Assembly: GCA_008632985.1 (NCBI GenBank)
Contig: QPGO01000025.1
Span: 434,001 to 498,000, forward strand
DNA length: 64,000 bases
Origin: Psammoneis japonica
Taxonomy: Eukaryota
Direction: 5' to 3'
The notes beneath the pieces are model-generated. The model was not told the origin of the DNA. It saw nothing but the letters and a program-made list of their open reading frames with translations, and did no database searches. Positions 1,175 through 57,245 of the stretch are shown piece after piece (the stretch's first letter is position 1; every line of letters begins with the position of its first letter). A program made the translations under genes and the position numbers.

Positions 1175-1519
1175 CTTGTCTGTCTAGTAGTCATACTGTG
1201 AGACTTTGTACAACTTTTGTGGAACTTTACAAAGTTAGCAAGCTGCTTATGATGGGCAAACGTGAATTAAAAAATACAATGGGATTCTGGTTACCAGTGT
1301 ACTGGGGAGTAAAACGTTCACTGGGATCCCCGTCAGCAGCGCTTTGCCGGTCGGCCGTATTCGTCATTAGCGTAATGGAGGTGGAGAGTGGCTCTTGCTC
1401 CTCATCCGTCTCGTAGCGACAATCGCGCGCTTCGCAAGCCCTGCTCATGAAGTTGTCACCTGAAGGAGCCCAATGATGAACAGGGCTGAGAACAAATGCA
1501 GGCGCACGAGTCAACTGAC

Positions 1520-2710
1520 GATGATGTCAAAGACACAGAGGACAATGAAGCAATTGGTGTTGCATGTTTTGAAGAGGACTCCTTTAGCAACTGGGCACTC
1601 TCAAGCTCTCACGTGCAGCTTCCATTCCTGTGACCATTGAGTGAACGAGGACATGTGTGAAGAAAGAAGCTGTTGATGTGATGTTTTGTGGTGGCTGCTG
1701 TTGTCACTCAACAATTGTCTCTTCTTGAAACCTCATGACACATTTGTGCTTTGGGTGGACCTTTGTTGTTGAGTTCATTGTTCTGTTGATGCAGTCTCTT
1801 CAATTGTGCACAAAATGACCTCACACAGCCAAGTTTGAAGTTGTTCTTGCCAAATGCAGACAGAAGGAGCTCAGCATCAAGCTGCTGCATTTGCAATTGT
1901 TGCAGAGCCCAGCAAGTGAGCAAAGAGCCTCTTGACAAGCCAGCTCCAACTCATGAAGTTTGCGCAGCCAAACTTTTTGGTTTTCGGTCTGGCCCTTTTT
2001 CTTGCTTTTTGCTCTCTGAGAGGTGCTGTTTCAAAAAGCACCCAAAACCTGTCATGGCTTTGTGTTGGGCAGCACTGCAAATCCCTTGTTCTCTGTCTTG
2101 TGGCACCCAGTGTTTTCATTGTGCCCACAGCTTCGAACACCAGCATGTTCTCATCTCTTGTCTGGTGCTCTTCTGCAATCATCTTTCTGTTCCTCCACTG
2201 CTGCAAACAAAGCTGTCACAAGACCGCAACAATTGGAAGCATTCCAGATGGCCAGCAAGACTGCTGCAATGGCCAGAGCTGCAGCCATGCAGGGAAAACA
2301 GGAGGATGGCACCACAGCTTCCAGGAGCCACCGCCCCCAAGAAGAGATGTGCACAATCAAAAAGACTTGGTGCGCCACTCATTGGATTGTGAGACAAATG
2401 TGAACTTTGTGACTTGTGCCTCTGTTGTTTGTGGGAAACTCTGAGTTCTGTGCAGGTGAGTCCACCATTGAGCTGAGTTGGCGAACGAAGTCGTGGCCAC
2501 AATGCACCGGGCCCTGCCATGGATTGCAGTGGGTCCTGGGTGGGACACGAAGTGCAGTGCTGCCCAATGTTGGGTCAAGGAGATTGTTTGAATGTCAAAT
2601 TAGTTGTTGCTCTTGTTGCTTGTTACAGCAGCACATGTCATTTGCCGGGGTGTCCCTGGATGGAATGAAGTCCAGATGGGAACACAAGTGCTTTTTGGAA
2701 GTGCGGCTGT
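1520..2710. other. Hypermutated CpG- and TpA-depleted island, possibly a decayed minus-strand gene
   Basis: Abrupt switch to TG/CA-rich sequence with few CG and almost no TA; ORFs here nearly lack Tyr and are rich in C/H/Q/W; boundaries approximate. Confidence 0.75.
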
Positions 2711-39913: not shown

Positions 39914-41860
39914 TTACACTGCAACAGCCCTGGTTGCGAGTTCCTCTTGTGAGTCATCATCGGAAAAAGATGGCGCGGGAGAGAAGTGAGCATTGGGTGT
40001 TATGGATACGAAACGTCGTCTCGGAGATGCCGCATCTAGATCCGGTGGGAGAAAGTCTCGGTTGTATAAATCACGGTCTTCGTGGGATAGTTCGGTAACA
40101 TCGAACTTCGAATCAGGCAAAAGGGTAGTCGACGTCATCGGGTGAGGATACCCGCGTGCGCCTCGGTCCGATGGGCCGCGATAGGCGAGCGAAACAGCTT
40201 GGAAATCTTCCGTGCCATGACTGAAATGATGGCGACTTGTTCTCGTACTCTTTTGGTCATCAGCCGATGCCTTGTTAGCGACTGCTGGCCTTGGACGGCC
40301 CAAACTTGACGAGACGGAAACCGTGTCGTCCGTTTCGGTTCTTTTCAGGTCTCTGTCAATTCTCTCCTCGCGTCTCCTTTTGCGCTTCAACGCGGGAGCG
40401 CCCTCACGGCACGCCTGGCAAGTTTTTTCGAGAGCACCCCGTAGACCGATGTCGTACCAGAGAATTTCCCCATTTGCAACGCATTGCTCTCGTTTTAGGA
40501 ACCTCCCACCTTTCTGCCTGATCTCTTCCACGACCAAGGCCGCAACTTCTGGTTTGTCACGCTTTTTGGCATGGAGATAACGATCTTGGAATCGCTTCAC
40601 AATTGATCGATAATACCTGTTAGTAACAGATAATAAGAGGCCGTGAGAGTGTTGTCGTAGCTATCCATACAAGCGATAGAAAAATGCAGAGACGGCCGAA
40701 ATCGCATGAAACGCGAGCAGTACAACTTCACCTGCTACCAGGGTGTGATTGCAAACCAACAACGTTCTCCACTTACCTGTTGCCCGGATGTGAATTAGTT
40801 GCTCCTGTGAAAAGAAAGAATTCAAAGAGTTATCGCTTAGTAAAGCATATCTTTCGTGTACAATACATATCACCGTGACTATACATACCACCCCTTCCGC
40901 ACAAAACATCGTTCTGGTTGATGTCACGAATGTAATCCCGCTGTGGCTGGGGCGGCAACATAAAATGTGGCCCAGGAGGAGGATAGTAAGGATACTGGAC
41001 GAAAGGTGGAGGAAATTGGCCATACGAATAGGATTGCATGGACATTGGATGAAGAGGATACTGGCCATGAGATGCCGTAGTCATAATGATCGGTGGTGGT
41101 CCAGCAGGCGACACACGAGGAGGAGTATACATTCTCCCCGACTCGGTTCCACCCGCAGTCTTCAAAGACGATTGCTCCGTCTCAAGCATAATTTGAGCCG
41201 GTGGCATCGCGTAGTTGTTTCGTTCGTTTGAACCTCCTCTTTGATATCCGTGATTCGTTTGCTCGTAGATAGTTCTTCCCACGGACTTGTTTTGCTCGTT
41301 GCGTTGGCCGACAGAAATATCATGAGTCTTGTTTGAACGAGCTGAAAAAATCGGTGAGTGGTTCTGTTGAGAATTCGCATTCCTACTCTGCTCGTAGAGT
41401 CTCGCCTCGGCTGAGCCTGTGCTCTTGATAATTTCGGTTTTCGTAGTCTCACGTAGCTTGGAGTTTCCATCCCGTACAGATTCATAAGAAGATGCATAAT
41501 CACTACCAGTGGTAGCCTGTTTTTGAAAGCACCGAAAAAGAAATATGTGTAACTTGTTAGTGGTGACGAAGCGTGAACACGGCTTAAGCAATCTGGGTCA
41601 ATCTGATAACCGGGTTTTCATCCCAAACGCGTGCGAGATAGAGAACGCATTTTCGGACACGCAACGGTCCCTTACCTCATAGGGGTGTTTAGAAGTGTAC
41701 CCATTTCCTGGCCATTCTGGAGATCGTGGAGCACTTCCAAAGTCTCCGGCTGCTCGACCACCGACACACACACATTGTTCGTACCGGTATCTCCGCTCTT
41801 ACGTTTACCAAAATGGCGAACGTCATTCGGGCTGCTTGACGATGAATGTAGGGTCTCCAT
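39914..41860 (-). CDS. DUF6824-domain protein (diatom-expanded family); multi-exon, 5' exon uncertain
   Basis: DVLCGRGG|ATNSHPGN|RYYRSIVKRFQDRY..AKKRDK..VA..VVEEIRQKGGRFLK..WYDIG..ALEKTCQACRE. Confidence 0.75.
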
Positions 41861-42379
41861 TTCTCCCTCTCTCTCCTTGATTTAGCTTCAACAAATCAGA
41901 AATAATGGGAAGAAGCGTGTAGCTTGTCTGCATTTTTTCGCTGGCGAGTTTCGATAAAATGTGACCGATGAAACGTGATCCGCGGCTCCTCGCTCGTCGG
42001 ACACGATCGTGTCAGATCTTAATCTTCACCCCTGAATATATCGATGATGTCATATTCTAAAAGAACCTGAATAATAAGTATACGTTACAGAGGACAACTA
42101 CTGTACAGTAAGTAAGTATCACACTTAGTCATCGGTGCTTGTGAGCGCGCGCTACGAGATAGATAGAAGGTCGCTCGGTCTATCTAGAGTCTATCATCAA
42201 TCAGGGCCCAAGGCCTAAGCATAGGCACTCTAGATCGACGATACTGATGGCCAACAAACAGGAAATAGAAAAGAGGAACTTACCGGTACTTCCAGGGGGT
42301 CGCTAACCTCTATCGATACACCTTTTACTACTTTGACACCAGACTACAAACCCAAGAGCAGCACCAAAGCTCGCACGCG

Positions 42380-43734
42380 TTACTTTTCCGCCACCTTGTC
42401 GACCTGTAGCACATATGCTCCTTGGACGTTTCCTCCTTTCAGATCGCGAAGAGCTTTATTTGCATGGTCAAGGTCGTACAGGGTTACTTTTGGTTTGAGA
42501 GGGATCTCAGCCGCCACCTTGAGCAGCTCTCGGAGGTCTTTGCCAGTGACATTCGCAACAGTCTTAATTTCCTTCTCCATCCAAAGGTGCTTTGCGTAGT
42601 CCATCCCAGAAAGCAAAGAAGCATCTTTGCTTTCCTTCCTAATAGCATTTATCACGAGCCTCCCCCCTGGCTTCAGTACCTCCATCGCTGAAAGTATAGG
42701 TCCCCAAGCTGGCGTAGTATCAATTATCGCGTCCAACATCTCGGGTGGCTTGTCGTCGGTGTTGCCAGCCCATACAGCTCCAAGTTCTCTAGCAAACTCT
42801 CTGGTTTTTTCACTGCGTGCAAAGACATAAATATCACTGTCTGGGTACAGGTGCTTGCAAAGCTGAAGGACAATGTGGCCAGAGCCACCAAAACCAGTCA
42901 AGCCTAGGCGCTGCCCATTTCTTAGGTTCGTAAGCATGAGAGCGCGGTATCCGACACCTCCGGCACACAAAAGAGGTGCAGCTTCTTCATCTGTAAAGAC
43001 TTCAGGAATCTGATGGAGCAATACCTATTAGAATGATTTGATTCTGCCGACGTAGGCAACCGTTGCAAAAAAAAAACTACATACCTTATGAGCGTAGCGC
43101 TCCCCGACCCTGAACGAAACGAAAAGAACGAAAAAGGGGCAATGGAAAGGTTGAGCGAGTCTTGTTTGTGACGGATGCCTATGGATCAGCCTTGCAGAAG
43201 GCTTTCCACGATGCAGCTGCAGAACAAAAGGGCTACTCACACCATATATTGACTGTATCCTCCATCAACGTCGCGACCAGTGGCTCGATAAAGGGGAGAA
43301 AGATTCTCCGTTTCTGTTCCATCAGAATCAAAGATCCACCCTACTCCAACCCGATCACCGACTTCTAGCTCGGTTACCTCTTCACCAATTGCAGCTACGC
43401 GTCCAATAACTTCATGTCCAGGAACGACCGGAAGGGAAGGAGGTGCCGTGCGACCTTCGATTTCATCCAGCTCTGTGTGACAAACACCACAAACAGACAC
43501 TTTGACTAGTACTTGATGCTTCAGAGGGACGGGGATTGGCATTCTGGTTGCTACGAGAGGTCCGTGATTGGGGTCCTCAGACGGAGCAATCGGACCGATC
43601 TTTGTAAGCGCCATTGCCCGCATTGTGCCACTTGAATCCGCCATTTCTGAAAAGCCAGAGACACTTGCTACAAGCTGACCGTACAATGCAATCAAGAGGA
43701 GAAGGCAGGTGATTTGAGCGGTTTGATACACCAT
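42380..43734 (-). CDS. Zinc-dependent MDR alcohol dehydrogenase (AdhP-like) with an N-terminal presequence; 25-nt micro-exon at 43085-43109
   Basis: VCGVCHTELD, VVPGHEVIGRV, GDRVGVGW, DGGYSQY, AAPLLCAG, GLTGFGGSGH; introns 43110-43240 and 43010-43084 give an in-frame join. Confidence 0.9.
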
Positions 43735-44991
43735 GAGCAGCTCTACTGTAGGATACAGTAGCGGTTGTGTGATCGGTGATGAAGAAAACAAAAAATCCGA
43801 ACACGACCACAACGAGTCTGACCGCCTCTCGTCGACATTTTCTTGTCTTTCAACTTCAGCCAAATGACAATGTAGTGCCGGCCCCCCACAGCTTTGACGA
43901 GAGCTCGATGTTGCTTCAGACACTTTGGTTGTGCATGATGCCCATGCTCTCTTTAACGTCATCAATTACAAAAGTGCGAGGCAGTTTCGTGAAACATTGC
44001 TTGCAAGGAAACATTGTTGGTTGGACTTTTCAACATCACTCTGGCTGGCCGAGGGTTTTGCAAATGTGCCAGAAGACCGAAGCTTGCTTGGGAGGACACA
44101 GTGTCTCACTGTGCAGGAGTGTGTCCATTTTCTAGAATGTTGGAAGGCAAGGACATGCATCCAACAAGTCCAATCAGCTCTGATCTGCAGGCTGTAGAAC
44201 AGGTGCCAGAGAGGACACAAAAACAGGCGGAAGAGACAAAAGAGCCCCGCACAGTGTCATCTCTGAAAAATGTCTCCCTGTGAAATCTGCCAGAAGTGCA
44301 CACTGCAAATTGGTGCAACTTGCAGAATTGTCACAAAGAACAGCTGGGCCTGTTTGACAAAAGTCATTAACCAAGTTCCACTCAGCAGCAGGAGCAAGCA
44401 TCTGGTGTGTGCAACATCCTTTCAAAGGCCGGCCAAGCAGCACACCAAACATTGGGGGGAGGGGCGATGCACAAACTGGTGGCAGCAGCAGGGACTCCAC
44501 CACTTGACTGCACAAAACTCTTCATTGACAGTGTTGACATGAGAAAAGATGCCAGTCGTTTGCTCTCCTGCATCATCTTTTGTGTTGGGTGACACGCATG
44601 AGTGTCATTTCCAGCCCTCTTCTTCAAAAGAAGAGAAAGAGCCTCTTGCTTCTGCTGCACAGAACAAAAAGAAATGGGTGGCTGTGGGCTGCATTGAGAG
44701 TCCACCCCAGATGCTGGTTTTTGTTCAAGTGTCATCCAATCAAAGGTTGTCACAGCAGCAGAGAGGGGTGCATGTTGGGCCAATGAGCGATGGTGCCAGA
44801 GGTGGTGGTGACAGGGCCAAGTTGTGCTTGAGAGCAACGTGCTGTTGTCTGATTGTGGGGAGCTTTGAGGTTGCTGGAGGCCCTCTCATGTTGTGCAAAC
44901 AGTGCAAAGATTTGGCACCTCATGGTTTGGTGGGAGTGAACTGTTGGCACTTGTGGTGGCCTCGTGTCCAAGAATCATTGACAAAGTGTGT

Positions 44992-45016
44992 CGCAGCAGC
45001 AGCAGCAGCAGCAGCA
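44992..45016 (+). repeat. (GCA)n microsatellite
   Basis: gcagcagcagcagcagcagcagca. Confidence 0.85.
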
Positions 45017-47449
45017 TGAGTGTCGGGGGTGTCTTTGACATGTTGGAGTTGATGCTGGCACCCACACAATGAGTTTGATGGTTGAAGAAAAGCAAAAAGA
45101 GGCACAGTCAGTTTCCAGCTGCTCTCAAACTGCGCCCATGTTGTGTGGCTGGCAGACTCCCATTTTTTGTTGATTTGCCAGAGCCTTTGGGCAAAGAAAG
45201 AGGCAGTGGAGTTGAAAACTGCATTGCATGAGCTGCTGTTGCAGCAACAAACTCTTGGCTTTAAAAAAATGCTTTTCCCAGCTGTCCATCCAAAGCTGGC
45301 ATTGTGTTGTGCACTTGTTGGCATCTTTGAGCCAAGCCTGCATTTCAATTGATGGCGCTGATCTGAAAAGCAACTTCTTAGAGTGAGCATCTGGGAGTGG
45401 AGCCACACCATTGGTCTGCTGCACCTGTCAGCTTCAGATGGTTGCTTTTGCATTCAGCCATTGCCCTGGTGTCATTTGGGCCAGAACTTGCACTGCTGGT
45501 TTGTGCACTGGGCTCCTGACAACCAAGTGGGTGGTTTCTTTCCTCAGCTTGCAAATCACCATAGTTTTTTGCTGATCACGGCTGCCATGTTTGTTGGCTC
45601 TGTTCTGACATGTGTTGTTTGCCATTGACGAATGCACACAAATGCAAGGGAGTGGGAGAAAGGGATGCTTTGGGACACATTTGGGTTGGGGACACTCCAA
45701 AGCTGCCGGGTTCCTTGGTGTGAGATGACATTGTTCTTGCAACTGCCATGCACATGTCCCCAGCAGTGTTGGATCCAGAGTGGAGAGCAAGCACATCACA
45801 GATTGCAACTTGGGAGAGAGCACCAAAACTCCAGAACAAAGTGTCAAAGGCGAAGTGATTTGCAGCAAAGTTCTCCCTGCATCTTTGGCTGGTGGCAAAT
45901 GTCCCCACACCATGGCTTTGCTGGTGACACACTGTTGCCATCACAAATTTGCTCGCAGGTCACAACATGGCAAAAGCAATGGTTGAGAATCCAATTGCAT
46001 GTTGCTCACAGGGGCAACTGCCATCCATTGGATCAACGACAACAGAGTGCAATTAAGCAGGATTGTTGCATGAATTTCTCAATTGCAAAGGATTTCCCTT
46101 TGCACCACTGTTTGCTGCTCTTTAGAGCTGCTGCAGTGAAATGCACCAAACTGTCAACAATTCATGTGTGGCTCAAGCATTGCTTCAATCTTTTTGCTGC
46201 AAAACCAGTCACAAACAAGATTTTGTGAGCTCCAAAGTTGTCGAAGAATTTGCGCATCCTCAATGCAAAAGCCACTCTCATGCAAAATCTGAACAGAGCA
46301 AGGAAATTGGATCAGCAAGACACAACATTGGGCTGTTGTCATCTTTGCAGAACAGCAATGAAGTTCTCTTTGACTGTCATTGCCGTCCTCTCTGGTGTTG
46401 TTGTTGCTTTGACCCACAATGATCCTCTTGCCACCATTTCCATCTTGACCTTTCTTGCATTGAAAGCAACCTCAAAATGAAGCAAAGATGAAGAAGTGGA
46501 CACAATTCAAGATGTTTTTGCCACCCCAACTAAAGAGAATCTAGCAATTGTCATGCATGAGAGCTCCACCTGCACATCACAAGAGGCACGTCTCAGAGGC
46601 TGCATCAAGGAACTCATTCATCTTGCTTCAAAACCCCAGGTCAAGCAGATTCACCAGTGTCCAATTGCTTCCAATTCCAAACTCGCCCAAGCCCTTGGCA
46701 AAGTCCATCACTCATGCTCCAACCTCCATTTGTTTGGGATTGAGTTCAAATCCTTTGCAACCAGTGTGAGCCAAATCAAGTCTTTCATCACCAAAGCCCT
46801 CAAATGCTTCTGCATGACCTCCACCAAGCTGAACATCTGTGGAAAGCTTCTGCCAAAGCTTGACAACACAAGTTCCAGTCCCTTGCTTTCAGCTGTGGCA
46901 ACATTTGAGTTCCTGCTTTCAGACTTTTCAAGGCTGGGGAATGTGTCAATGCCCCCAGTGCATGTCAAAGCATCTGCAACTTTTGACGGTTGATGCCGGC
47001 ATTCTATTTTGTCAACTGTGATTGTTCAACGCATGGAAAATGCACCCCTTGTGGGACAAAACTGCAACATTGACCATTTCTGTCCAGCCCTTCCACTGCT
47101 TGTGACACCCCTGTGCCATCTGGCACCCCGTGGTGAACCAAATGTTGGAGAGCCCCTGAGCCCCAGCACCATCAAGTGCCTCATGGCGAAGAAGATTTAG
47201 ACAACTTGGTTGGATGTTTTGGACAAATGGAAAATTCATCCCAAGCAAAGCAAGACAAGGAAGCCATTGACTGGCTGACTGACCTTTTTAAATGCGTGCA
47301 AATTGCAACTGTGACTGACAAAAATGACTGCTGTGCCAGCATGGCAGTTTCACCTCCAATTGAAACAGCTCAAGTGGTGATGCATCCTGAGCCCACAGCT
47401 TGAGCTTCAACACCCTCTGAGACTGACTCCAGATGAACCAAGCACTGCT

Positions 47450-49420
47450 TTCTCAGAATGATGTGGGCACCACCTGCATTCACGCTTCACAGCTTCCTCA
47501 AAAACTCCATTGGAAATGAGTGACAAGGCTCTTGTCATGAAACAGCCCACCAAGCTTGTCATTTCCTCAAAAATTGCAAACCTCATGGCTGTCCTCACTT
47601 TCCAGTGCAGAGCTGAAGAACCCAACTGAAGAGCCCAACCCCTTGTGATAAAAGTTTGGACAAACACCACACCAAACAAAATGCTGTGTGGCCAACATCA
47701 AAGTCAGCAGGCTCCTCTCCATCAACAATCTGAGAACATCACCCAAACCTGGGCCAAAGTCAGTTGCTTGGATGTGTTGTTGCCTTCAAATTAGCCAGTG
47801 TGACATGACCACAAGCAGCTCCAATTGCAATGAGCAATTCACAATTGTGTGTTGCAACACAAGAACCATTCCTTGTTCCAACAGAGTCATTGTCATCATG
47901 ACTGATGACAGGAGACAACACAACCATGGGTGGAGTTGAGTCCAATTGCTGTTTGCTGAGTCACATGGGAGCAACAATCCAGCTCAAGCAGCAGCTGGTG
48001 GCAACTTGTCTGGCAACTCACAGTTGTTTGGGAGAGAATGGCAATGTTTCATTCCAAACCAAACACCACTTGCCCAACCTGTTTCTTCTTCTTCTTCTTC
48101 TTCTTGCCTCTTGTTCAACTGGGATTTGGCAACTCTTTGGATTCATCATTCACTGACAGTTGAGCAGAGCCACAGTTTGGAGCAACATGTGATGACCTGT
48201 TGTCATTCAGCACATGACAAGAGACAATGCCACATGTTGTTTGGTGATTGAACAGTTTCTTCTTCTAGATCTTCTCCTTTTTTAACAGCCTCATTCAGGA
48301 ATGTGACATGGGCAGAAAGGCTCCACAACTTGACCATTCCATCATTTCCACCCACAGAGATCCAAGCCGAGTTGCACCCCCTGGTGAAAGGATGCAACCG
48401 CCCAGAATGATTTCATGCTCTTTGTCCACAAAAACCACCCATGTGATTTCCTGAGTGCAAACTCCATGTGTGTGCTGTCCCATCCTCCCCAACCAAGATG
48501 ACTGCAACTTGAGTCATGCAGCAGTCCCACATTTGGGTGGCATGGCCCCATCCAGCCCACATCAACTTGTTGTTGTTGTTGTTCTCCATTTGTTTTAAGC
48601 CACACTGTTCAACTGCCTGAGGAGGTGGAAGCTGTGCACGTTCTGCACTGAGCCACTTTAACAGAGTGAACAATGCCTTTGTGACCATTCAAAATGTGAT
48701 TGACTCCTTTGCACTGGACAGGAGGATTGGCTTCATTGTTGGCAGCCGCTGTTTCTTCCACGCTGCTGGTGGTCCACAGGAGCATCTTGTTTTCAACCGT
48801 CCCAGTTCTGCCATTGTGTGAGCAAATCTTTTGCAATGGACTGATGGAGTGACATGGAGCATGTGATGCATCTCTTGGAGCAGACTGTTCTGTTGACAGA
48901 TGCAATTTTGCAGCAGTCCTCTTGATTTTCAATCCAGAACGTGTGAGCCACATGTTGTGTGCCATGGCAACAACCATTGTCAAGCCTTTGTTTCCACTGT
49001 TGCCATGAAGATTTCTGTCCCAAATCCAAAAACAGCATGTGTGGACTGGAGTGAATCATCTGGTTGAACAAGATGCAAAGGAGCAAACCTCTGCTTGTTT
49101 TCAGTGCTCACTGCCATTCAAACAAATGCCAGTTGCTGCCCCCCCAACACAAACATTGCATCATTGCTGGATCACAATTCATCTTCATCCCCAAATCCAA
49201 TGCCCTGAACAGCCCCTCCATTGTGAAAAGCTCTGCATGAAGCTGCTGGATCCTTCTCACAAAGGGAACAGCACGGCAGGTGGGAGGCTTGTGCAGCAAG
49301 CAAAAGTGTGCTCTTGCTCTGTTGGCCCACCCACGATGGACTGCTTTTCAAGAAAATGGCAATTGGTGATGGCGACTTTGACTCACCCATGGCTTTCTTT
49401 AGAACTGGCAACAGTGGTGA
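47450..49420 (-). pseudogene. Decayed WD40 gene resembling WDR6/Trm734
   Basis: Ordered motif relics across frames: RAFHNGGAVQGI, VVAMAHN, RCITCSM, GTVENKMLLW, LNGHKGIVHSVK, ASTSSGS*TVWL, GWGHATQMWD, VILVGEDGTAHTWSL, VGGNDGMVKLWSL. Confidence 0.65.
48083..48105 (+). repeat. (TTC)n microsatellite
   Basis: ttcttcttcttcttcttcttctt. Confidence 0.8.
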
Positions 49421-52400
49421 TCGTGAAGAGAGGATTTTTTTTTTGCCTCAGTTCATCATTGTCACTTGTTGCTCATTGTCTGCTTTTTTGGTTTTGGTGG
49501 AACAAATGGGGCGATGGCCTGTTCCATGATGTTTGCAATGACATGCGTGCCAAAAATTCATTGTGCATTTTTCGCACACAAACATCCATCTGCAAAGCAT
49601 GATGATGTTGAATGTGTGTCAATCATGTCAAAAATTGCCAAAAGAATGAACCCAACTTCACATCAACATGATGCTGAGTTGCAGTGGATGTTGCTTCCTC
49701 CAAGGTGACCCTCCTTCCAACTGTTGGGCAGTTTCCTTCCTGCAAACTGTTTGAACACACATGCACTTGTGCAAGAGCAGAGTGGCAGCTGCCAGCCTTG
49801 TTGTGTTCTTGCCAGTTCTCAACAAAGAGAAAAAGCCACAAGCAGCTGCTCCAAACAACTCTCTCAATTTTGTGAAGATGCAAAATGAGCCCACTGCCTT
49901 GTCAGCCTGGCCATGGAGATGACTCTGACCATGGCCATTGCATGGATGAGCATTGCTCAAACACCACATTGTCAGATGCAGCAAGGTCATTGATTGTGAA
50001 GAAAGCATTCAAGGCAGTTGCCTGCCTGCAGCTTCCCCCAAAAAGTCTCATGCCTCATCTGTTGCCAAATGAGAAGAAGAGGACAGCAATGGCAAAGGGG
50101 AGGAAAAGCTTTTTCTCATGCAGAGCCCAAGCCAGAAATTGGGTGGTGGCCATTTTGATGACAAGTGCTCTTGGTCTAAACTCTGTGGCACATTTGACAA
50201 TGAGAAAAGCAGCAACAAGAACAACAAGACAAAAAATCCCCAGATCCACATGACATTGAAGGTGGCAGTGATGCCAATGAGGTCATCGTTGTGGAAGAAA
50301 AAGACTCAGAGTGCACAGCAGAGTCAAAAATTCAGGTCAATGCCTTGATGATGAGCTCTCTCTTCCCAACTTGCCCAAGTCTGTGCACCATTTCCTGGTC
50401 TCAACGATTCATCCAAAGCCAATGACAAGGGTTGTGGTGCTTCCAAATCACCTTGTCCATGCAACACAGGTGACAGTGAAGACATTTCTTTGATCTTCTC
50501 AAGCATCAGCCAGTCCTGGCAGTGCTGCATCAGCCACTGAGGCTCCAGGTTTGCTGGGGCAGGGAGAGGCATCATTCACATCACAGGACAAAACTCCACT
50601 GGCACCTTCAGGAAGCGCCACAGTGCCAAACTGCTCTCCCCCCTCCTCCAAGGATGGAGGGCTGGTGGCAATTTCACAGCCCACAAGGTCAGATCTGCTT
50701 GTGATGTGTTGCACTTGACAATCTGCCAAAGCCAACTTGGCTGGACTAAAAGCTTTTTTGTGCTGCTGCACATTTCTTTCTGCACAAGTTCATTGCAGGC
50801 CTCAGCTCAGTCCTTTTGATCTTGATCCAGGTGCAGCTGCATGCTGGCTTGGTTGACATTGCTGGTGGCAGAAGATGCAGGCTCAAAATTGGCAGCTGAC
50901 ACCAGACTTTCTCCCAAGGCATGCACCAGCATGGTCAGCATCTTCTTGCAGTTCACCCCAGCTGCCTCTTGCTTTGACATCACCCCAATTGACAGGAGAA
51001 ACAGGATGAGGATGAGGCACACCTTCTCTGGTGACAGCGCTGCCACTTTGTTGTCATGCGGTGGCTGCAGCAGTGCTGGCCAACAAAGAGTCCATTTTGG
51101 AAGAATGAGCTGAGCCAGGGGGTGAATGCTCACATTTGCCCAATGCTTGTGGCACCTCCTCAACAACCTGGCAGGGCAGGCATGCTGAAACATGGATGCA
51201 AGAGCAGAGGCAGCCTGTCAATGCACTGAACATCATCCACTGGAGCACTCAGGTGCACATCTCAGAGCAATCACAAAGACAACACTGCCCATTGAAGCTT
51301 GGTGCCTGGCCATCACGACATGCAGAACTTTGGAGCAGGAGCTCTGTGAAAAACCAGCTCTGCAACAATGCCTCCAAGCCCCTGTTTCTCATCTGAGCTT
51401 GTGCAGAACATTCAAAGTCATGATGAGATGAGAGGATCCAATCAATCACAAAGGCAGCAGCAATGTCCAGCAACAGCTCCTTCCATGGAAACTGTGCAAA
51501 CAGTCTTGCTTTGTTTGCAATTGTTTTAAATCAGAGCATGGCTGTGGCCAGCCTTGTTCATCATCTTGTCCACACCTTTTTGCATCTCCCACTGTCCCCC
51601 TCACATCTGACAGAAAACAGGGAACTTGAAATGGGGCCAAAGTTTGTGCATGTGGGTGGTGGATTGCCCACCTTTTGGGGGGTCAATCTGATCAACTGGA
51701 CAAACTTTTGCCATGCCATCAACATCACAGTTTCAAAACTTGCAAGCAGCATTAGAGCACATCCACTGTGTGGCAGCTTGCAGCACCCATTTTGAAAAAT
51801 GTCCCTGTGCAGCACTGAATGCTGCAGAGATCAGTTGTCAGTTCAATGCATGCTGGATTGCACAGAAAAGGTGGCCCAACAGTTGACATTCTTGACAAAC
51901 AAGCATGTGTGTGGGCTCTTGATGTGAGCACATGCTGTGTTGTCATCAGAATGGTGCCATGTGGTTCTTGAGGAATGCACTGGTGTTGTGCTGCTCAAAG
52001 AAGGGCTCACAACTTTTTGCATTTGACAACTCTGCAGGTCTTGGCTTCAATGCCAAAAGGATGCATTGGCTCTTGAGCCCTGTGTGTCAAACATTCTTTG
52101 CACTGCAGTGGTTGTGAGGTGCTGCTCCAGAGCACCTCTGCCAAGGCTGGCATCACAAGCACAAGCAACACCATGGCTGGTGACTCACCCTTTCTCTCTC
52201 CGGGAGGATGCCCAGATGAACAACAAAAGGCTGTGCAAAGTTTTCTGTTGTGGCCAGATTGACAGAAACAGCATGTCCAGGTTGTCATGCTCAGAAAATT
52301 CTGTGTGCATGAACCGGGTGCCAGTTGGGATCCCTGAGAGCAAGACAAGACCCAAATTGCTGCCAGTGTGTTGTCTTGCATTGCCTGAAAAGACAGCAGT

Positions 52401-55057
52401 TAAAATGGCTGGACATCCAGTGAGCTCAATGAGAGCAGCAGTGGTGAGATCTGCAGCCCACCACCATCTGTCTGTTTCAAAATGTCAAAACCATGCAGGG
52501 CTGACAAGGCTTGCTCCTTCTGCACACACCATTGGCAGCTGGTGGCAAAATCACTGATGCCACACCCAATGCCACCTCTTGTTCCAATTTCTTTTTTAAA
52601 ATGCAAAAACAAAATGCAGGCAGCACTCACACTTCATTTCTGAACACTTGGACATTGGATGTGATGCTGCAACTCCTCCACGATGCGGCACAGGTCATCC
52701 AAAAAGTCATCTAAGATGGTGTAGAGCTTGCGCTGTCTGTGAAGGATGGACAATTTTGCCAAGCTGTTTGATGATCAGCAATGTGATGAAATCAGCAGTT
52801 GGGGCAATGCTGGAAAGGAAACAACCCTTGCAGTCCATCCCCTCCTGCTTCTGTGACTCTCCTGTGTGACTCTGCAGGAGAAACAAGTGGTTTTCAAAAG
52901 GGGGGAGGGGGCTGGAGAAACCACAGCATTTCAATGAGAACATGTGACGAACTTGCAATGAAAAAGACTCCCATGAATGACAATGGCTGGCAACAAAGAC
53001 TCTGCCTTGCTGCCTGAGGTTGGAGAAGAGAAGCAGCTCCACATCTCAAGAAGAACTCCTGCAAAGTTTTCAGGAACAAGCCACAGGAATTGCAGCTGCA
53101 GGGCTTTGTCAGAGGCGACAAGAAACATGCTTTGCTGGCTGCTGACATTCTGCATGTTAGCACATCTTTCTTTGTCCATGGAGCACCCCCACACTCAAAC
53201 ACTCTCAAAATCATGATGGTTGCATGGGTGCCCGGCAATGGACAGAAAAGAAGTTGGAACAAGTGTGGCGATTTGGCCAGAGATTGTTGATGTGGGGCAT
53301 CACTGAACTGTTTCACCTCAGTTTCCAGTTCAGTTGTAAGATGCAAAAAGAGACAAGAGCAGCAAATCTCACAGCAAACCTTGTGCTTTGTGAGTGCTTG
53401 AGTTGGACTCTTTGATTGCATGAGGTGGCCCAGATGCTTGGCACAGCAATGAAGTTGATGATCATTCACCCCTGGTGTGGTTGCACTGTCAGATCAACAA
53501 CAGTGTGACACCCAAAGAGGCAGATCTTTGCAACACTGCAAATGCAGCAGTGGCAGGTGGCAAACTCTTTGACTCAGCCATTGTCAGGTCAAAAGATGAA
53601 CACATGGTCATTTGGCATTTTCTCACCAATCATCAACATCAACCATGTGTGCACCAGCCACAAGGACAGATTGGAGATTTGCTTGCCAGAAGACAAGGCT
53701 CTAAGCTTCCAAAACCTGCTCACACCACCTCAACAGTTGAAAGGAAATTGCAGTTCACAATGCATGTGTGCTGTTTGGCAATGTGCTGAAGGAGACAGCC
53801 AGAACAGCACCAGAACAGCACACCTGTTTTGTTTTGAGAATGTGCTGATGACTGCCTCTGACAGCAAACAAAGTGCAAGTGCATGCCAGCCAGAAATGGA
53901 GCTGTGATGAATGACCCAAGTGGAAGTTTCAAGAGCTCTGTTTTCTGCTTCTTTTACGTGAGACATGCTTCTTGCCTTTGTCAGAATGAGATTTCACTGC
54001 AGAAACAGAAATGCATTTTGTGTCAGAGTTCAGAGCATTGTGCTGCCTCACAAGGGTTGCTGGCACAAGCACTGTGATGAGTCATGAGCGAACTGTCAGC
54101 ATGAAAAGAGCCAGCTGCTGGCGGCAGTGGGAGTTCACAATTTAGCTGATGTGCCAGCCAGAAGTGGGGTTGCAGTGAATGATGGCAAGTCAAAGCTTCT
54201 GGAACTCCATCATCCACTCCTTTTGTGTGAGATGTGTTTTTGTCCTCCTTGGAAGGCGAGAGTGCTGTCAGTGAATGACATTCAAAAGAAAAAGTGACAA
54301 CAAGTGTGCAAGAATTTTTTTGATGCCAAGGCACACTCGCTCACCCACACTCTTGTTCTCCTCAGATTCCTTCATGGAATCCCTCCTCCAATGATTGCAG
54401 GCTTCCTCAATTTCTCTGTTGAGTCAGGTTACTCTGATGGTCGAATTTGGCTTCGAAGTTGATGTGTTGAGTTCAGAGTGGATGCAAGAACAGGTGAGGG
54501 GGGCGAGACAACTACTTCCACTCTAACAGCAAATGTTCCCAATTCGCATTTGTCCGATCGATTTATCTGCACATCCAGACTGAATCGAAGGCAAGAGAGA
54601 CTCAATGGGTGAGTGCCACATTTGCAGTTTGTGGTGACATTGTTCTTTGGCAGACGGCAGCCACACCGAAAAGCAGTGCATTGTGAAAGACAGAGCAAAC
54701 AGCTGATCATGATGATCTTCCGCATGGACGCCTTCTGTCACTTTGTTCTTCGTTGGAGCGAGCACAAGGAACACAAGCATCGCCATTAAAGGAACCAATT
54801 CGAAAGTTGTCGCACACCCGGAATCACCTGGCCTGTAGCTAGAGGGCCGTAACTAGAGAATCGAGAAGTTGCATTATTGTTTCGCTTGGCTTTGCTCGAG
54901 GTCTTTCAGCCGCGCCGCATTTACTGTACCCGTATGACCACAGCGTAGGCAGCCACTATAATCCAACCGCAAGATGGAGCTCTCGAAGTTGCTAAGTAAA
55001 GTTTTGACATACGTTGCACCTAGCTAGCATGCTAACCATCACTAAAATGTTACGTAG

Positions 55058-56629
55058 TCATTCTGTAGCTGGACTTACAAAAAAGAGTGCCGCGGTCAAG
55101 TATGCACCAGCTGGGTAGGCAGCTGGACTTTGAGTGTGGCATGAAGCTGCTCCATTGATTTTCAATAGCGTAATACATCTTCCTGCTGACACAGCTGCTT
55201 GCTGCACCATATTTAAAAAATACTGACCGCCGTCCTTCTGTGTCATGGCTGCCGAGCACGAGCAGGATAGAAGCAACCCGCCCTTTTCGGCCGATATGAG
55301 ATGAATGGCGTCTCTATTCAATGCGTGATATTTTCTTGAAGCACGGTCCAGACCAGAGGCAGACGGAGCGAGTTTCGGCGGATCCAAAATAACAACATCC
55401 CACTCCTTTCCTTGCGACCGAGCTGATTTCATAAAAGGCGAAATATCGCTTTGCACAAACTCAATCTTGTCTTTATCGCAAGCGTTGAATTTTGCGTTGC
55501 CTCTGCAAGCATCAATAGCGTCTTGAGATGAATCGACACCAGTCACGTGCGCTGCTTTCCCGTGAATCAACGCATTCAAGGCAAACCCACCGTGATACGA
55601 GCACAAATCCAAAACTCGCTTCCCTTGACACAGTGGTGCGAGATTCCGTCTATTCTCGCGCTGATCACAATAAACGCCTGTCTTCTGGCCCTTTTGATAC
55701 GGCAACGAGATGTACTGTATGCTAGACTCTGTCGTCACGACTATTTTTTCAGTGTCATAATCCGTATCCTCGTCAACATTCATGTCAAGTTTATATCCGT
55801 CTTGTTTCAGACGAGCCGGTGTAGTCTTCCAGATAATATTGATTTCAGTGCCTTCATAACTCGGGTGCCGACTTAGAACATCGCAAAGTACATCATGAAT
55901 AACATCTTTGTAAATCTCACACCACGACGCCGACGACATTACAACTGCAACTTTCCCACCCAGGATATCCACAGCGAGTCCAGACAGTCCGTCACCCTCC
56001 CCATTAACAAGTCGATACGTATCGGTTTCTTGTGACGGCAACGACAATGCCAATCGTGATTGGACAGCAGCACCCAGCTTTGTCGATAGAATAGTGCAAA
56101 GTGCTTCTGTCTCTTCTTTGCATTGCTTTACTTGATCAGCTAGAGACGGATTTATCGATGCATGACACAGCATTCGAACTCTGTACATGGAATTAGGATT
56201 GTAAACCCCCCACCCAATAAATTGTGTTGGACCGTCTGGTGGAGTATCAAAATGTGGATATGTCTCGCTCTTGCTCCGTCGCTTCTCCTTATTTTGTTGA
56301 ACTGCAACCCCAACTAAATTCCCCATTTCGATCTTTTTCTTTCCTGACGAAAACGCAATGGCTCCTGGAAAGATGAGCGGATTGCCATCTCGAAAGGATC
56401 TAGACTGTCTATTTCGTTTCACAACAACTATAGGAAATGAATACTCTTTCTTTGCAGCAGCCGATGAATGTAGACGAGAAAGGCGTAACAGCAGAGGTGT
56501 CGCTGGGCGCTGAATTGTGACGAAACCTCTGCACGCCACAAGCGACATGGACACGATTGTCAACGAAGGGAGAAAGCAAGAAATGATGGATCGAATCATT
56601 GACAACGTCAAGTTACTTCTCCCTCTCAT
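55058..56629 (-). CDS. RlmI-like SAM-dependent rRNA methyltransferase, probably organelle-targeted; start uncertain
   Basis: YRLVNGEGDGLSGLAVD, GQKTGVYCDQRENR, VLDLCSYHGGFAL, DVVILDPPK, SCSCS; hydrophobic N-terminus followed by ACRG-FVT. Confidence 0.88.
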   Translation of the reverse strand: MRGRSNLTLSMIRSIISCFLPSLTIVSMSLVACRGFVTIQRPATPLLLRLSRLHSSAAAKKEYSFPIVVVKRNRQSRSFRDGNPLIFPGAIAFSSGKKKIEMGNLVGVAVQQNKEKRRSKSETYPHFDTPPDGPTQFIGWGVYNPNSMYRVRMLCHASINPSLADQVKQCKEETEALCTILSTKLGAAVQSRLALSLPSQETDTYRLVNGEGDGLSGLAVDILGGKVAVVMSSASWCEIYKDVIHDVLCDVLSRHPSYEGTEINIIWKTTPARLKQDGYKLDMNVDEDTDYDTEKIVVTTESSIQYISLPYQKGQKTGVYCDQRENRRNLAPLCQGKRVLDLCSYHGGFALNALIHGKAAHVTGVDSSQDAIDACRGNAKFNACDKDKIEFVQSDISPFMKSARSQGKEWDVVILDPPKLAPSASGLDRASRKYHALNRDAIHLISAEKGGLLLSCSCSAAMTQKDGGQYFLNMVQQAAVSAGRCITLLKINGAASCHTQSPAAYPAGAYLTAALFFVSPATE

Positions 56630-57245
56630 GCTGAAAGCTGGAAGAGCCTTTGATGGATGAGACGAACGACGAAAACGACAAGATCCAAGATCCATCACAA
56701 GTCGTGATAATCAATATGCTGATATTCATGGTTTATTATTCCTGAGTGATTGCTGACGAAAACTTCAAGAAAGTTGCTAGTAAATGCGTTGAGAAACGTT
56801 CCTAATGCGTTTACAATACTGGAATAACTTTCTTAAAATCTGTACATCACATTGGACCTAATTTGGTTTGCATTTTAAAAAAATGTCTATCGACCTCTAA
56901 TGGTCATATAAGTATATTTTTGCGTAAACATATTATAACCTCTAATGTAAATACTTCATATTATCTCTCTGTTTATAAAATGACAAACTAATCATATGTT
57001 CTAAAGATCGTATATGGCATAACAATTTTTGGTGTTTTCCCGCCCAACGGCTCCGCAATCACAAAATTTTCGCAAGATTCACATTATCACGAAGAACCCA
57101 ACGCTATCGTGTGAGAAAGCAAAGAGAGGTGCAAATTTCGTCACTGTTGTGCGTTTTATCATCCTATTGATAACGTACAAGATTCAAGGCATAACAACAG
57201 GTGAACAAAAAGTGTCGTGTTATAAAGCAAAGAGAGGTGCCAACC

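Follow-up and report, generated by a model that had tools for sequence, protein, structure and literature searches.

How does a stretch of some 10 kb in a diatom genome come to be almost devoid of two dinucleotides at once, CpG and TpA, between genes that use both freely? The locus lies in a window of 64 kb (the whole stretch of DNA that was analysed) from Psammoneis japonica, in which the original prediction had pointed to a block of about 10.8 kb with CG rare, TA nearly absent and normal flanks. Observed/expected (o/e) ratios in windows along the 64 kb agree with that description. The block and its neighbours, with core and margin borders set post hoc, after the data had been seen, are as follows:

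43240..43965, minus strand: 5' exon of a zinc-type alcohol dehydrogenase (ADH) gene (ADH_N, E 1.2e-18), its upstream side facing the block
43760..43988, no strand: left margin, upstream of the ADH-like gene; TpA 3 versus 9.0 expected, CpG 13 versus 13.1
43989..54440, no strand: core block, CpG and TpA both depleted; intergenic, no ORF longer than 199 aa
54441..54786, no strand: right margin; TpA 3 versus 13.5 expected, CpG 14 versus 19.8, near normal
55061..56695, minus strand: RlmI-like SAM-dependent methyltransferase of ordinary CG/TA content, its 3' end facing the block

Over the core (about 43989-54440), o/e ratios are 0.11 for CpG and 0.05 for TpA, with 1.87 for TpG and 1.80 for CpA; the flanks have a CpG o/e of 1.00. 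Ten consecutive 1-kb windows from 44001 to 54000 share this profile (CpG 0.05-0.19, TpA 0.01-0.07, TpG 1.71-2.23, CpA 1.57-2.01, G+C 0.45-0.50), compared with 0.70-1.30 for CpG and 0.41-0.91 for TpA in 1-kb windows away from this block, a second, smaller one and the edges of both. G+C in the block is at the flank level, and positions 43950-54800 hold 84 CG, 40 TA, 1212 TG and 1249 CA, with 67 CG and 34 TA remaining in the block proper. Flank DNA outside long ORFs (9.66 kb) keeps both steps, with a CpG o/e of 1.06 and a TpA o/e of 0.78, so the depletion is not simply a contrast between coding and non-coding DNA. Six-frame translation also bears out the earlier remark that the ORFs of the block lack Tyr and are rich in Cys, His, Gln and Trp: Tyr makes up 0.04% of residues in the block versus 2.2% in the flanks, the other four are 1.6-1.8-fold higher, and Arg stands at 0.42-fold.

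Across the whole 64 kb, the fraction (CG+TA)/(CG+TA+TG+CA) falls below 0.2 in only two runs of 300-nt windows, 43901-54700 and 1401-2700. The latter contains a small block with the same double signature:

1415..1519, no strand: left margin; 0 TpA versus 4.1 expected, CpG 7 versus 6.0
1520..2481, no strand: small block, between an FAA-hydrolase gene and a Med31 gene
2482..2600, no strand: right margin; 0 TpA versus 4.7 expected, CpG 5 versus 6.8

With its right margin, this patch covers about 1.1 kb (~1520-2600); the 300-nt windows spanning 1601-2600 contain no TpA at all and 2-7 CpG per 300 nt. At the large block, depletion of TpA alone extends to ~43760 and ~54786, past the refined core of ~43989-54440, and at 4 of 4 borders of the two blocks the TA-depleted footprint is 100-350 nt wider than the CG-depleted one, as measured from borders drawn post hoc.

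The missing steps are balanced by what has been gained. Relative to flank-scaled counts, an excess of ~946 TG+CA in the block matches a deficit of ~907 CG+TA, which argues for conversion in place, and flank DNA in which CG and TA are converted in silico reaches TG/CA o/e ratios of 1.90/1.85, compared with 1.87/1.80 observed. About nine tenths of the CG and TA steps are turned into TG or CA across 10 kb, the direction of change being read from this bookkeeping and from the polymorphism described below rather than from an alignment to an ancestor or outgroup. Loss of CpG alone cannot explain the pattern, which points to a further A:T>G:C process, local and limited to TpA; the double signature and the second, localized A>G (T>C) process put forward in the original prediction are upheld. 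TG (1180) and CA (1208) are randomly interleaved along the block (1189 runs versus 1194.8 expected, z -0.24), which indicates that either strand was hit site by site, without strand patches.

We consider it probable that the block is resident, single-copy, non-genic diatom DNA that was rewritten in place by two transition processes acting on both strands. The first would convert CpG to TpG/CpA, most simply by deamination, spontaneous or enzyme-assisted, of 5-methylcytosine (5mC) in a CG-methylated, silenced island, and the second would be a separate A:T>G:C process acting at TpA only, with a strong 5'-T-A-pyrimidine preference. Combined, they would have changed ~850-950 of ~10,450 positions while keeping G+C, and the ~1.1-kb patch at ~1520-2600 would have been rewritten by the same two processes.

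The pattern is not an artefact of this assembly, a possibility that the original prediction had kept in view. Contigs from the DNA run X1 (library type not on record), which possibly comes from the same sample as the assembly and therefore supplies supporting rather than fully independent evidence, cover the block and bridge both borders (4172, 1197 and 11665 nt; k-mer depth 57-67), differ from the window by 0.2-0.6% and carry the same depleted pattern. The k-mer depth of the block in X1 equals that of the flanks (57-67), indicating a single copy. It is extremely unlikely that errors of sequencing, base calling or polishing over modified DNA conceal a true sequence of CG and TA, since X1 contigs of 1.2-11.7 kb are equally depleted, contigs of this kind arise only from accurate reads, and ~900 changes would need a systematic error in two data sets.

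The positions at which X1 and the window differ, of which 40 of 97 were listed, reaching to 50147, are informative in themselves. Among those listed, 35 fall within 43990-50147 (6158 nt) and 5 in 3989 nt of flank, a 4.6-fold higher density in the block. The 35 comprise 20 CG<->TG/CA differences, four that form two CA<->TG doublets, two TA<->TG, five other transitions and four transversions or complex changes. Still among the differences listed, CpG sites differ at 20/60 in the block versus 0/238 in the flank (p 6e-16), and TpA sites at 2/21 versus 1/183 (p 0.03). X1 has CG and the window TG/CA in 13 of the 20 CG<->TG/CA differences listed, some of which miscalls of 5mC in long reads could have made, but at the remaining seven the window has CG and X1 has TG/CA, which speaks against an artefact. 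Both processes appear to be still active or very recent, the direct sign of ongoing change at TpA being the two TA<->TG differences (p 0.03). One TG/TA difference between the window and X1 lies in the left margin, at 43931.

What the block contains was sought at several levels. The flanking genes are diatom-like by sequence, and the best named relatives of the RlmI-like methyltransferase are from diatoms (47-56% identity). Within the block, Pfam matches at curated cut-offs are lacking in all 131 ORFs (stop to stop, 55 aa or longer) and also in the 40 longest out of 56 read-through frames in which TGA was rendered as X; the best sub-threshold Pfam scores of the block ORFs are at chance level (e.g., DUF7612, E 0.013). 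The plus-strand frame 45629-47197 had no protein homologue at E <= 0.01 among 8000 scored candidates, and the plus-strand frame 44198-47197 gave 0 matches against 1.84 billion protein representatives. A transposon or viral identity was accordingly set aside, with no Pfam domain and no protein homologue to uphold it; degraded or orphan foreign DNA could conceivably be the source of the block. An ancestral long ORF at 44198-47197 on the plus strand is a doubtful candidate: this frame has only 11 TGA in 1000 codons, compared with 14-33 per 802-1487 codons in other long frames, and the period-3 power of the block in purine/pyrimidine space is at noise level (median 0.9 versus 2.6 outside), with local peaks near 46200, 48600 and 50400.

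Searches beyond proteins gave a similar picture. Rfam found 0 families in the 64-kb window, no border motifs were seen by eye, tandem repeats are lacking in the block, and an exact 50-mer of the block had 0 matches in metagenomes. Only five short two-copy families and 0 inverted repeats turned up in the block when LTRs, TIRs and internal repeats were sought. Between the block and the rest of the 64-kb window, no exact 36-mers are shared in purine/pyrimidine space, and BLAST in the purine/pyrimidine alphabet gave nothing beyond the level of a reversed control. On another contig, X1 has a match to 46621-46823 (200 nt, ~88%) with CG-rich continuations, which may, judging from this similarity, be an unmutated paralogue; short matches of 20-54 nt to further X1 contigs and to contigs of a second run, X2, also occur inside the block. 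In the flanking genes the X2 contigs have CT..AC joints, so that this run looks like one of transcripts; it leaves most of the block uncovered, which bears neither way on expression of the block.

Foreign or otherwise special DNA, poor in CG and TA on arrival or made so by selection (virus-like or through nuclease-site avoidance), would account for the sharp borders and for the lack of anything similar in protein databases. It would also have a precedent in RNA viruses, for which joint CpG/UpA suppression with an excess of UpG/CpA has been described (PMC3829696, PMC7879557). Nevertheless, this origin is very unlikely, because the gain in TG+CA equals the deficit in CG+TA expected from host-like DNA, G+C is host-like, the listed X1 differences concentrate at CG and TA sites, and the two CA<->TG doublets fit independent hits on one ancestral site. 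Moreover, the same pattern recurs in a 1.1-kb patch between two housekeeping genes, and no coding signal was found on which selection could act. The avoidance levels known from viruses are also milder than an o/e of 0.05.

In its CpG arm, the block resembles decay by 5mC deamination, in which CpG is turned into TpG/CpA on both strands, the CpG deficit is balanced by TpG/CpA excess and confined to a domain, neighbouring genes keep a CpG o/e near 1, and CpG sites are highly polymorphic inside the domain. Such decay, however, cannot remove TpA, and the rate of CpG loss in the block is apparently very large, roughly 15-25% of CpGs per lineage versus ~0.1% flank divergence, a rough estimate from the differences listed. 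Diatom transposons are described as CG-methylated through DNMT5, and many diatoms are said to carry also DNMT4, which may be related to RID, the enzyme of RIP in fungi (PMC9998398). The block itself is presumably methylated or silenced.

Fungal RIP and the hypermutation of basidiomycete repeats at CpG/TCG have a parallel here: the transitions amount to a defence-like burst, limited to a domain and ruinous to coding capacity, and TCG, targeted in the basidiomycete case, is the most depleted NCG here (0.06 versus 0.12-0.16). RIP, in turn, converts C to T mainly at CpA, raising TpA and lowering G+C, whereas the block has a TpA o/e of 0.05, a CpA o/e of 1.80 and an unchanged G+C. RIP also requires duplicated DNA, while the block has single-copy depth and no duplicate within the window. 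The term RIP-like, under which the block was first described, is therefore not supported.

The few TA steps that survive define the target of the TpA arm. They lie in YTAR in 26/34 cases in the block versus 345/1961 in the flank (p 2e-13); the YTAR share is 19.9% in non-ORF flank DNA, against which the excess in the block is also clear (p 2e-12), and the same trend is present in the small block. Survivors observed versus expected are 2/120 for TAC, 1/109 for TAT, 17/90 for TAA and 14/90 for TAG, so that TAR has survived roughly 10-fold better than TAY. With survivors mostly in YTAR, the target is T-A-pyrimidine or, on the other strand, purine-T-A. Newly made TAs cannot account for this bias, since only 22-24% of the TG/CA sites of the block stand in a Y..R context. 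The greatest gains are in TGC/TGT and GCA, with ACA (1.65x) slightly below CCA (1.79x).

This preference bears on the possible enzyme. ADAR/ADAT-type deaminases and TadA-derived base editors convert A to G with a preference for a 5' U/T; the natural site of TadA, U-A-C, would fit T-A-Y, whereas a 3' G is preferred both by ADAR and in the editing of fungal mRNA, and TAG is among the best survivors in the block, persisting about 10 times better than TAC/TAT. ADAR-like RNA editing copied back into DNA was considered as a route and rejected, since editing at the RNA level would give a strand bias and none is seen in the TG and CA counts or in their runs. A DNA-acting adenine deaminase, as the original prediction had suggested, is a reasonable candidate for the TpA arm and would be the leading putative enzyme for it.

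Because R-T-A and T-A-Y are the same site on opposite strands, the base that is hit is not distinguishable from the sequence, and the primary lesion could also lie on the thymine. A TET/JBP-type oxidase could produce 5-hydroxymethyl- or 5-formyl-uracil at R-T-A in silenced DNA, which would mispair with G and yield T>C, and action of this enzyme class on 5mC as well could connect both signatures, both targets then being 5-methylpyrimidines in self-complementary YpR steps. 5-Formyluracil mispairs with G, and the 5-hydroxymethyluracil of dinoflagellates shows enrichment at TpA. Oxidation of 5mC alone, however, does not yield C>T, and we regard a thymine lesion as improbable.

A process of the kind required has been described in one other organism. 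In mutation-accumulation lines of the chlorarachniophyte Bigelowiella natans, 230/231 mutations that arose de novo in two regions of integrated viral DNA are reported as TpA>TpG/CpA, at a rate about 1000-fold above background and with essentially no C>T, 1/231 being of another kind (Mettrop et al., bioRxiv, 10.64898/2026.01.13.699255). The process in B. natans and that in the block would share A:T>G:C change at TpA, giving TpG/CpA on either strand, with which the balance and the strand symmetry of the block agree; both have sharply local nuclear domains and a raised diversity inside them. The long-term footprint reported for B. natans likewise consists of consecutive 1-kb windows that are poor in TpA and rich in CpA+TpG, many of them unannotated. 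The cut-offs given in the preprint (Rho TpA <= 0.43 combined with a Rho for CpA+TpG of >= 1.52 in at least 3 consecutive 1-kb windows; 10.64898/2026.01.13.699255) are passed by the block in 10 consecutive windows, although they were made for another genome.

The two cases also differ. B. natans belongs to another supergroup lineage than the diatoms, its targets are integrated viral DNA, whereas the block has no detectable viral, transposon or foreign identity, and its evidence is experimental, whereas that for the block is compositional with a few polymorphisms. TpA depletion is near saturation in the block (o/e 0.05), compared with a Rho of 0.45 given for the NCLDV region of B. natans. The block has an equally deep loss of CpG, while the main text of the preprint has 0 occurrences of "CpG", leaves diatoms unmentioned and gives no trinucleotide context with which the T-A-Y preference of the block could be matched (10.64898/2026.01.13.699255). 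We infer, by analogy, that the second process may be of the same kind in both, which suggests that diatoms too have the TA-specific mutator of this unrelated alga, in the present case together with CG decay. Our literature search met with no account of diatom TpA loss, and only the B. natans preprint describes such a process. The earlier phrase "possibly undescribed" therefore no longer covers the TpA process itself, which was shown on its own in B. natans, and holds only where diatoms or the combination with loss of CpG are concerned.

The B. natans data also weigh on an idea raised with the original prediction, that of a single cause: deamination of 5mC would create T:G mismatches whose error-prone long-patch repair, by a Pol-eta-like polymerase, would mutate nearby TpA. 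Loss of CG and of TA coincides in two separate blocks, and the TA footprint reaches 100-350 nt beyond the CG core at 4/4 borders, albeit borders set post hoc, as a spreading repair tract might. The target of Pol-eta, however, is WA, and AA is not depleted in the block (o/e 1.22 versus 1.16 in the flank) while AG is hardly raised (1.10 versus 1.00). In addition, the target here is T-A-Y, with its roughly 10-fold TAY/TAR survival difference, a preference that to our knowledge is no feature of Pol-eta, and the TpA mutations reported for B. natans come without accompanying C>T. On these grounds the Pol-eta idea is not supported, and coupled repair as the sole cause is quite unlikely.

Two separate processes acting on resident DNA thus remain our preferred reading, and it bears on more than this locus. 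TpA-restricted A:T>G:C hypermutation was first reported in 2026, from a single chlorarachniophyte (10.64898/2026.01.13.699255), and the same footprint, saturated, at a locus of a diatom would mean that the process is not peculiar to one lineage. That the TpA process accompanies CpG decay suggests marked chromatin, probably methylated, as its target rather than viral sequence in itself. The T-A-pyrimidine preference speaks against an ADAR-like preference and would be expected of a TadA-like active site, and the overshoot of the CpG-depleted core by 100-350 nt is a testable feature. Some diatom species are genetically tractable and their methylomes are known, which opens the mechanism to study by knockout of candidate DNMT and deaminase genes. 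For annotation, blocks purged of CG and TA resemble orphan DNA and are recognisable from composition alone.

A broader reading, which we hold to be doubtful but worth stating, is that diatoms, and perhaps many SAR lineages, possess a chromatin-targeted defence pathway that hypermutates silenced DNA at CpG and TpA. In its CpG arm an enzyme, possibly DNMT4 with its relation to RID, would drive C>T, and in its TpA arm a DNA adenine deaminase of TadA/ADAT-like type would act at T-A-Y. If this were true, marked islands would be turned, over a span of thousands up to hundreds of thousands of generations, into Tyr-less, Arg-poor, TGA-riddled junk of unchanged G+C, and the pathway would be a non-fungal, duplication-independent counterpart of RIP.

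In 10 consecutive 1-kb windows spanning 44001-54000, the observed/expected (o/e) ratio is 0.05-0.19 for CpG and 0.01-0.07 for TpA, with TpG at 1.71-2.23 and CpA at 1.57-2.01, while the 1-kb windows beyond this block (core ~43989-54440), a second smaller block and their edges range from 0.70 to 1.30 for CpG and from 0.41 to 0.91 for TpA. The original prediction that CG is rare and TA nearly absent here, with both present in the flanks, is therefore confirmed, and its interval, 43950-54800, holds 84 CG, 40 TA, 1212 TG and 1249 CA. The G+C content of 44001-54000 (0.45-0.50) equals that of the remaining window. The contrast is not one of coding versus non-coding DNA, since flank outside long ORFs (9.66 kb) has o/e values of 1.06 for CpG and 0.78 for TpA. 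Six-frame translation of the block agrees with the amino acid bias described previously: Tyr makes up 0.04% (2.2% in the flanks), the shares of Cys, His, Gln and Trp are 1.6-1.8 times higher, Arg drops to 0.42-fold, and TGA accounts for 537 of 597 stop triplets.

The proposed sliding-window check, run over the 64 kb in 300-nt windows with (CG+TA)/(CG+TA+TG+CA) < 0.2 as threshold, recovered the block and added a small one, with just two runs below the threshold (43901-54700 and 1401-2700). The small block is a 1.1-kb patch with the same CG/TA to TG/CA signature, a TpA count of zero in the windows spanning 1601-2600, and no Pfam domain in its ORFs.

Surroundings of the two blocks
43240-43965, minus strand: 5' end of a zinc-type alcohol dehydrogenase gene, adjoining the block
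55061-56695, minus strand: 3' end of an RlmI-like methyltransferase gene, adjoining the block on the other side
1415-2600: small block, between an FAA-hydrolase gene and a Med31 gene

The best named relatives of the RlmI-like methyltransferase are from the diatoms Skeletonema, Thalassiosira, Discostella and Cyclotella (47-56% identity), and its best unnamed matches reach 61-64%, which places the window in a diatom without proteins of its own in the collection searched, and not in Bigelowiella. Contigs of a second run, X2, skip 40613-40774, 40803-40888, 43009-43085 and 43108-43240, stretches of 75-160 nt with CT..AC ends that resemble short GT-AG introns in genes on the minus strand; this suggests that X2 is a transcript data set, though it is not recorded as RNA. 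Elsewhere in the window, a purine-rich tandem array at 18643-19178 (units of 39, 45 and 78 nt, up to 5-12 copies), apparently within a coding region, accounts for the pronounced skew in AT and GC between 18 and 20 kb. Period-3 power in purine/pyrimidine space at 57300-58800 is 17-25 times background, far above the window's other genes, and a 646-aa minus-strand ORF (3725-5662) combines globin with FAD- and NAD-binding oxidoreductase domains in a flavohaemoglobin-like architecture.

A base-calling or polishing artefact could produce such a pattern in the assembly, and X1, a public DNA run of unrecorded library type that may derive from the same sample, speaks against it by showing the same depletion across both borders. 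X1 contains 0.82 of the block's sampled 31-mers, and among its contigs aligned to 40001-59000, pieces of 4172, 1197 and 11665 nt (k-mer depth 57-67) span the block and bridge both borders, with a depth equal to that of the flank (57-61) and 0.2-0.6% of positions differing from the window. Since contigs so long and deep require accurate reads, the depleted sequence is genuine DNA at single-copy depth.

With flank tetranucleotide counts scaled to block length and summed over 16 contexts, the block lacks ~907 CG+TA and has a surplus of ~946 TG+CA. Random in silico conversion of CG/TA to TG/CA in flank DNA yields TG and CA o/e values of 1.90 and 1.85, compared with 1.87 and 1.80 in the block. TG (1180) and CA (1208) are equal and randomly interleaved (1189 runs observed where 1194.8 would be expected, z = -0.24), so both strands were struck site by site. 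A processive single-strand deaminase, or editing through one transcript, would be expected to leave strand patches, which the runs test did not find in the block. ADAR-like RNA editing is likewise rejected, as strand bias is absent and TAG, a context favoured by ADARs, is among the best survivors. The Pol-eta-like polymerase proposed originally is not supported, because its WA mutagenesis would reach AA, which is untouched in the block. Nor is the "RIP-like" label, as fungal RIP makes TpA, whereas this single-copy block loses it with G+C unchanged.

The TpA process has a marked context preference. Among the 34 surviving TAs, 26 are YTAR (TTAA 10, TTAG 8, CTAA 5, CTAG 3) and none is RTAY, compared with 345 YTAR among 1961 TAs in the flank (p = 2e-13) and 19.9% in non-ORF flank (p = 2e-12). 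TAC and TAT are reduced to 2 and 1 copies (120 and 109 expected), TAA and TAG to 17 and 14 (90 expected for each). The Y..R context accounts for no more than 22-24% of TG/CA sites in the block, so freshly made TAs cannot cause this bias. A two-rate model with TAY changing ~5 times faster than TAR would fit all four context classes; T-A-Y being R-T-A on the opposite strand, the data are silent on whether A or T is damaged. The largest trinucleotide gains are TGC/TGT and GCA, with ACA (1.65-fold) slightly below CCA (1.79-fold), and the small block follows the same trend. The CpG process shows a mild 5'-T preference (TCG 0.06, other NCG 0.12-0.16).

Each block is bordered on both sides by a margin of 100-350 nt that is depleted in TpA, has normal CpG and is raised in TG+CA (CpG 39 against 45.8 expected, TpA 6 against 31.2, TG+CA 151 against 110, summed over the four margins). 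The margins were delimited post hoc after data inspection, which makes their p-values optimistic. This suggests two separable processes with a common target, the TpA process extending 1-2 nucleosomes further; a repair tract spreading outward from the core would also fit.

Of the 97 difference rows between X1 and the window, 40 were covered, reaching position 50147, and at least 35 differing positions lie in 43990-50147.

Differences between X1 and the window in 43990-50147, among those listed
CG to or from TG/CA: 20 positions (13 CG in X1, 7 CG in the window)
CA to or from TG: 4 positions, forming two doublets
TA to or from TG: 2 positions
Other transitions: 5 positions
Transversions or complex: 4 positions

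The flank at 40001-43989 has 5 differences, none at CG. Among the differences listed, density is 4.6 times higher in the block than in the flank, affecting 20 of 60 CpG sites against 0 of 238 (p = 6e-16) and 2 of 21 TpA sites against 1 of 183 (p = 0.03). At 43995-43996 and 44590-44591, one data set reads CA where the other reads TG. Such pairs are the expected trace of independent opposite-strand hits on a single ancestral CG or TA, and they point to very high rates per site. An independent-loss model, in which ~25% and ~15% of CpGs would have been lost per lineage, predicts ~1 visible doublet, against the two observed. Both processes thus show signs of recent or continuing activity, although the TpA part is thin because almost no TpA remains to mutate.

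The longest block ORF has at most 199 aa, and a Pfam cut-off was reached by none of the 131 block ORFs and by none of the 40 longest among 56 read-through frames (X at TGA). Two large protein searches with frames read through in this way yielded no homologue, and searches of the block found no LTRs, TIRs, tandem repeats or Rfam family. In the purine/pyrimidine alphabet, chosen because transitions are invisible there, the block had no match in the remaining window above the reversed control, and median period-3 power was 0.9, the noise level, against 2.6 outside, with a few local peaks. The plus-strand frame 44198-47197 is TGA-poor (11 per 1000 codons) and lacks a homologue, so an ancestral gene there is no more than a possibility. 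A 784-nt X1 contig at single-copy depth matches 46621-46823 at ~88% over 200 nt, and its sequence beyond the match is CG-rich; this contig may represent a paralogue that escaped mutation and a potential guide to the direction of change.

Full-text literature searches retrieved one directly relevant paper (Mettrop et al., bioRxiv 10.64898/2026.01.13.699255). According to this preprint, 231 of 302 nuclear mutations in Bigelowiella natans mutation-accumulation lines fell in integrated giant-virus and virophage regions, 230 of these 231 being A>G/T>C and all 230 on TpA, at ~6e-7 per site per generation and in some lines only; 124 genomic clusters of TpA-poor, CpA+TpG-rich windows are mostly unannotated, and the authors suggested an ADAT2-like DNA adenine deaminase. 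CpG, diatoms and trinucleotide context are absent from its main text. By the cluster cut-offs given there, 10 consecutive windows of the P. japonica block qualify. From its figures (211 mutations, 3132 generations, 6169 TpA) we infer ~1e-5 per TpA per generation, at which 92% TpA loss would take ~2e5 generations, so such a block need not be old. Relevant to the CpG process in diatoms, another study describes CG methylation of transposons via DNMT5, and the presence in 31 of 60 species of DNMT4, which may be related to RID, the enzyme of fungal RIP (PMC9998398).

The observation is thus confirmed and sharpened. We consider it likely that a marked island, probably methylated and silent, was rewritten in place by two processes, of which one would be CpG decay and the other a TpA mutator of the B. 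natans type, here acting on T-A-Y. Beyond the recently described kind, what is new is the lineage, the coupled CpG signature, the trinucleotide preference and a target that is non-viral or unrecognisable.
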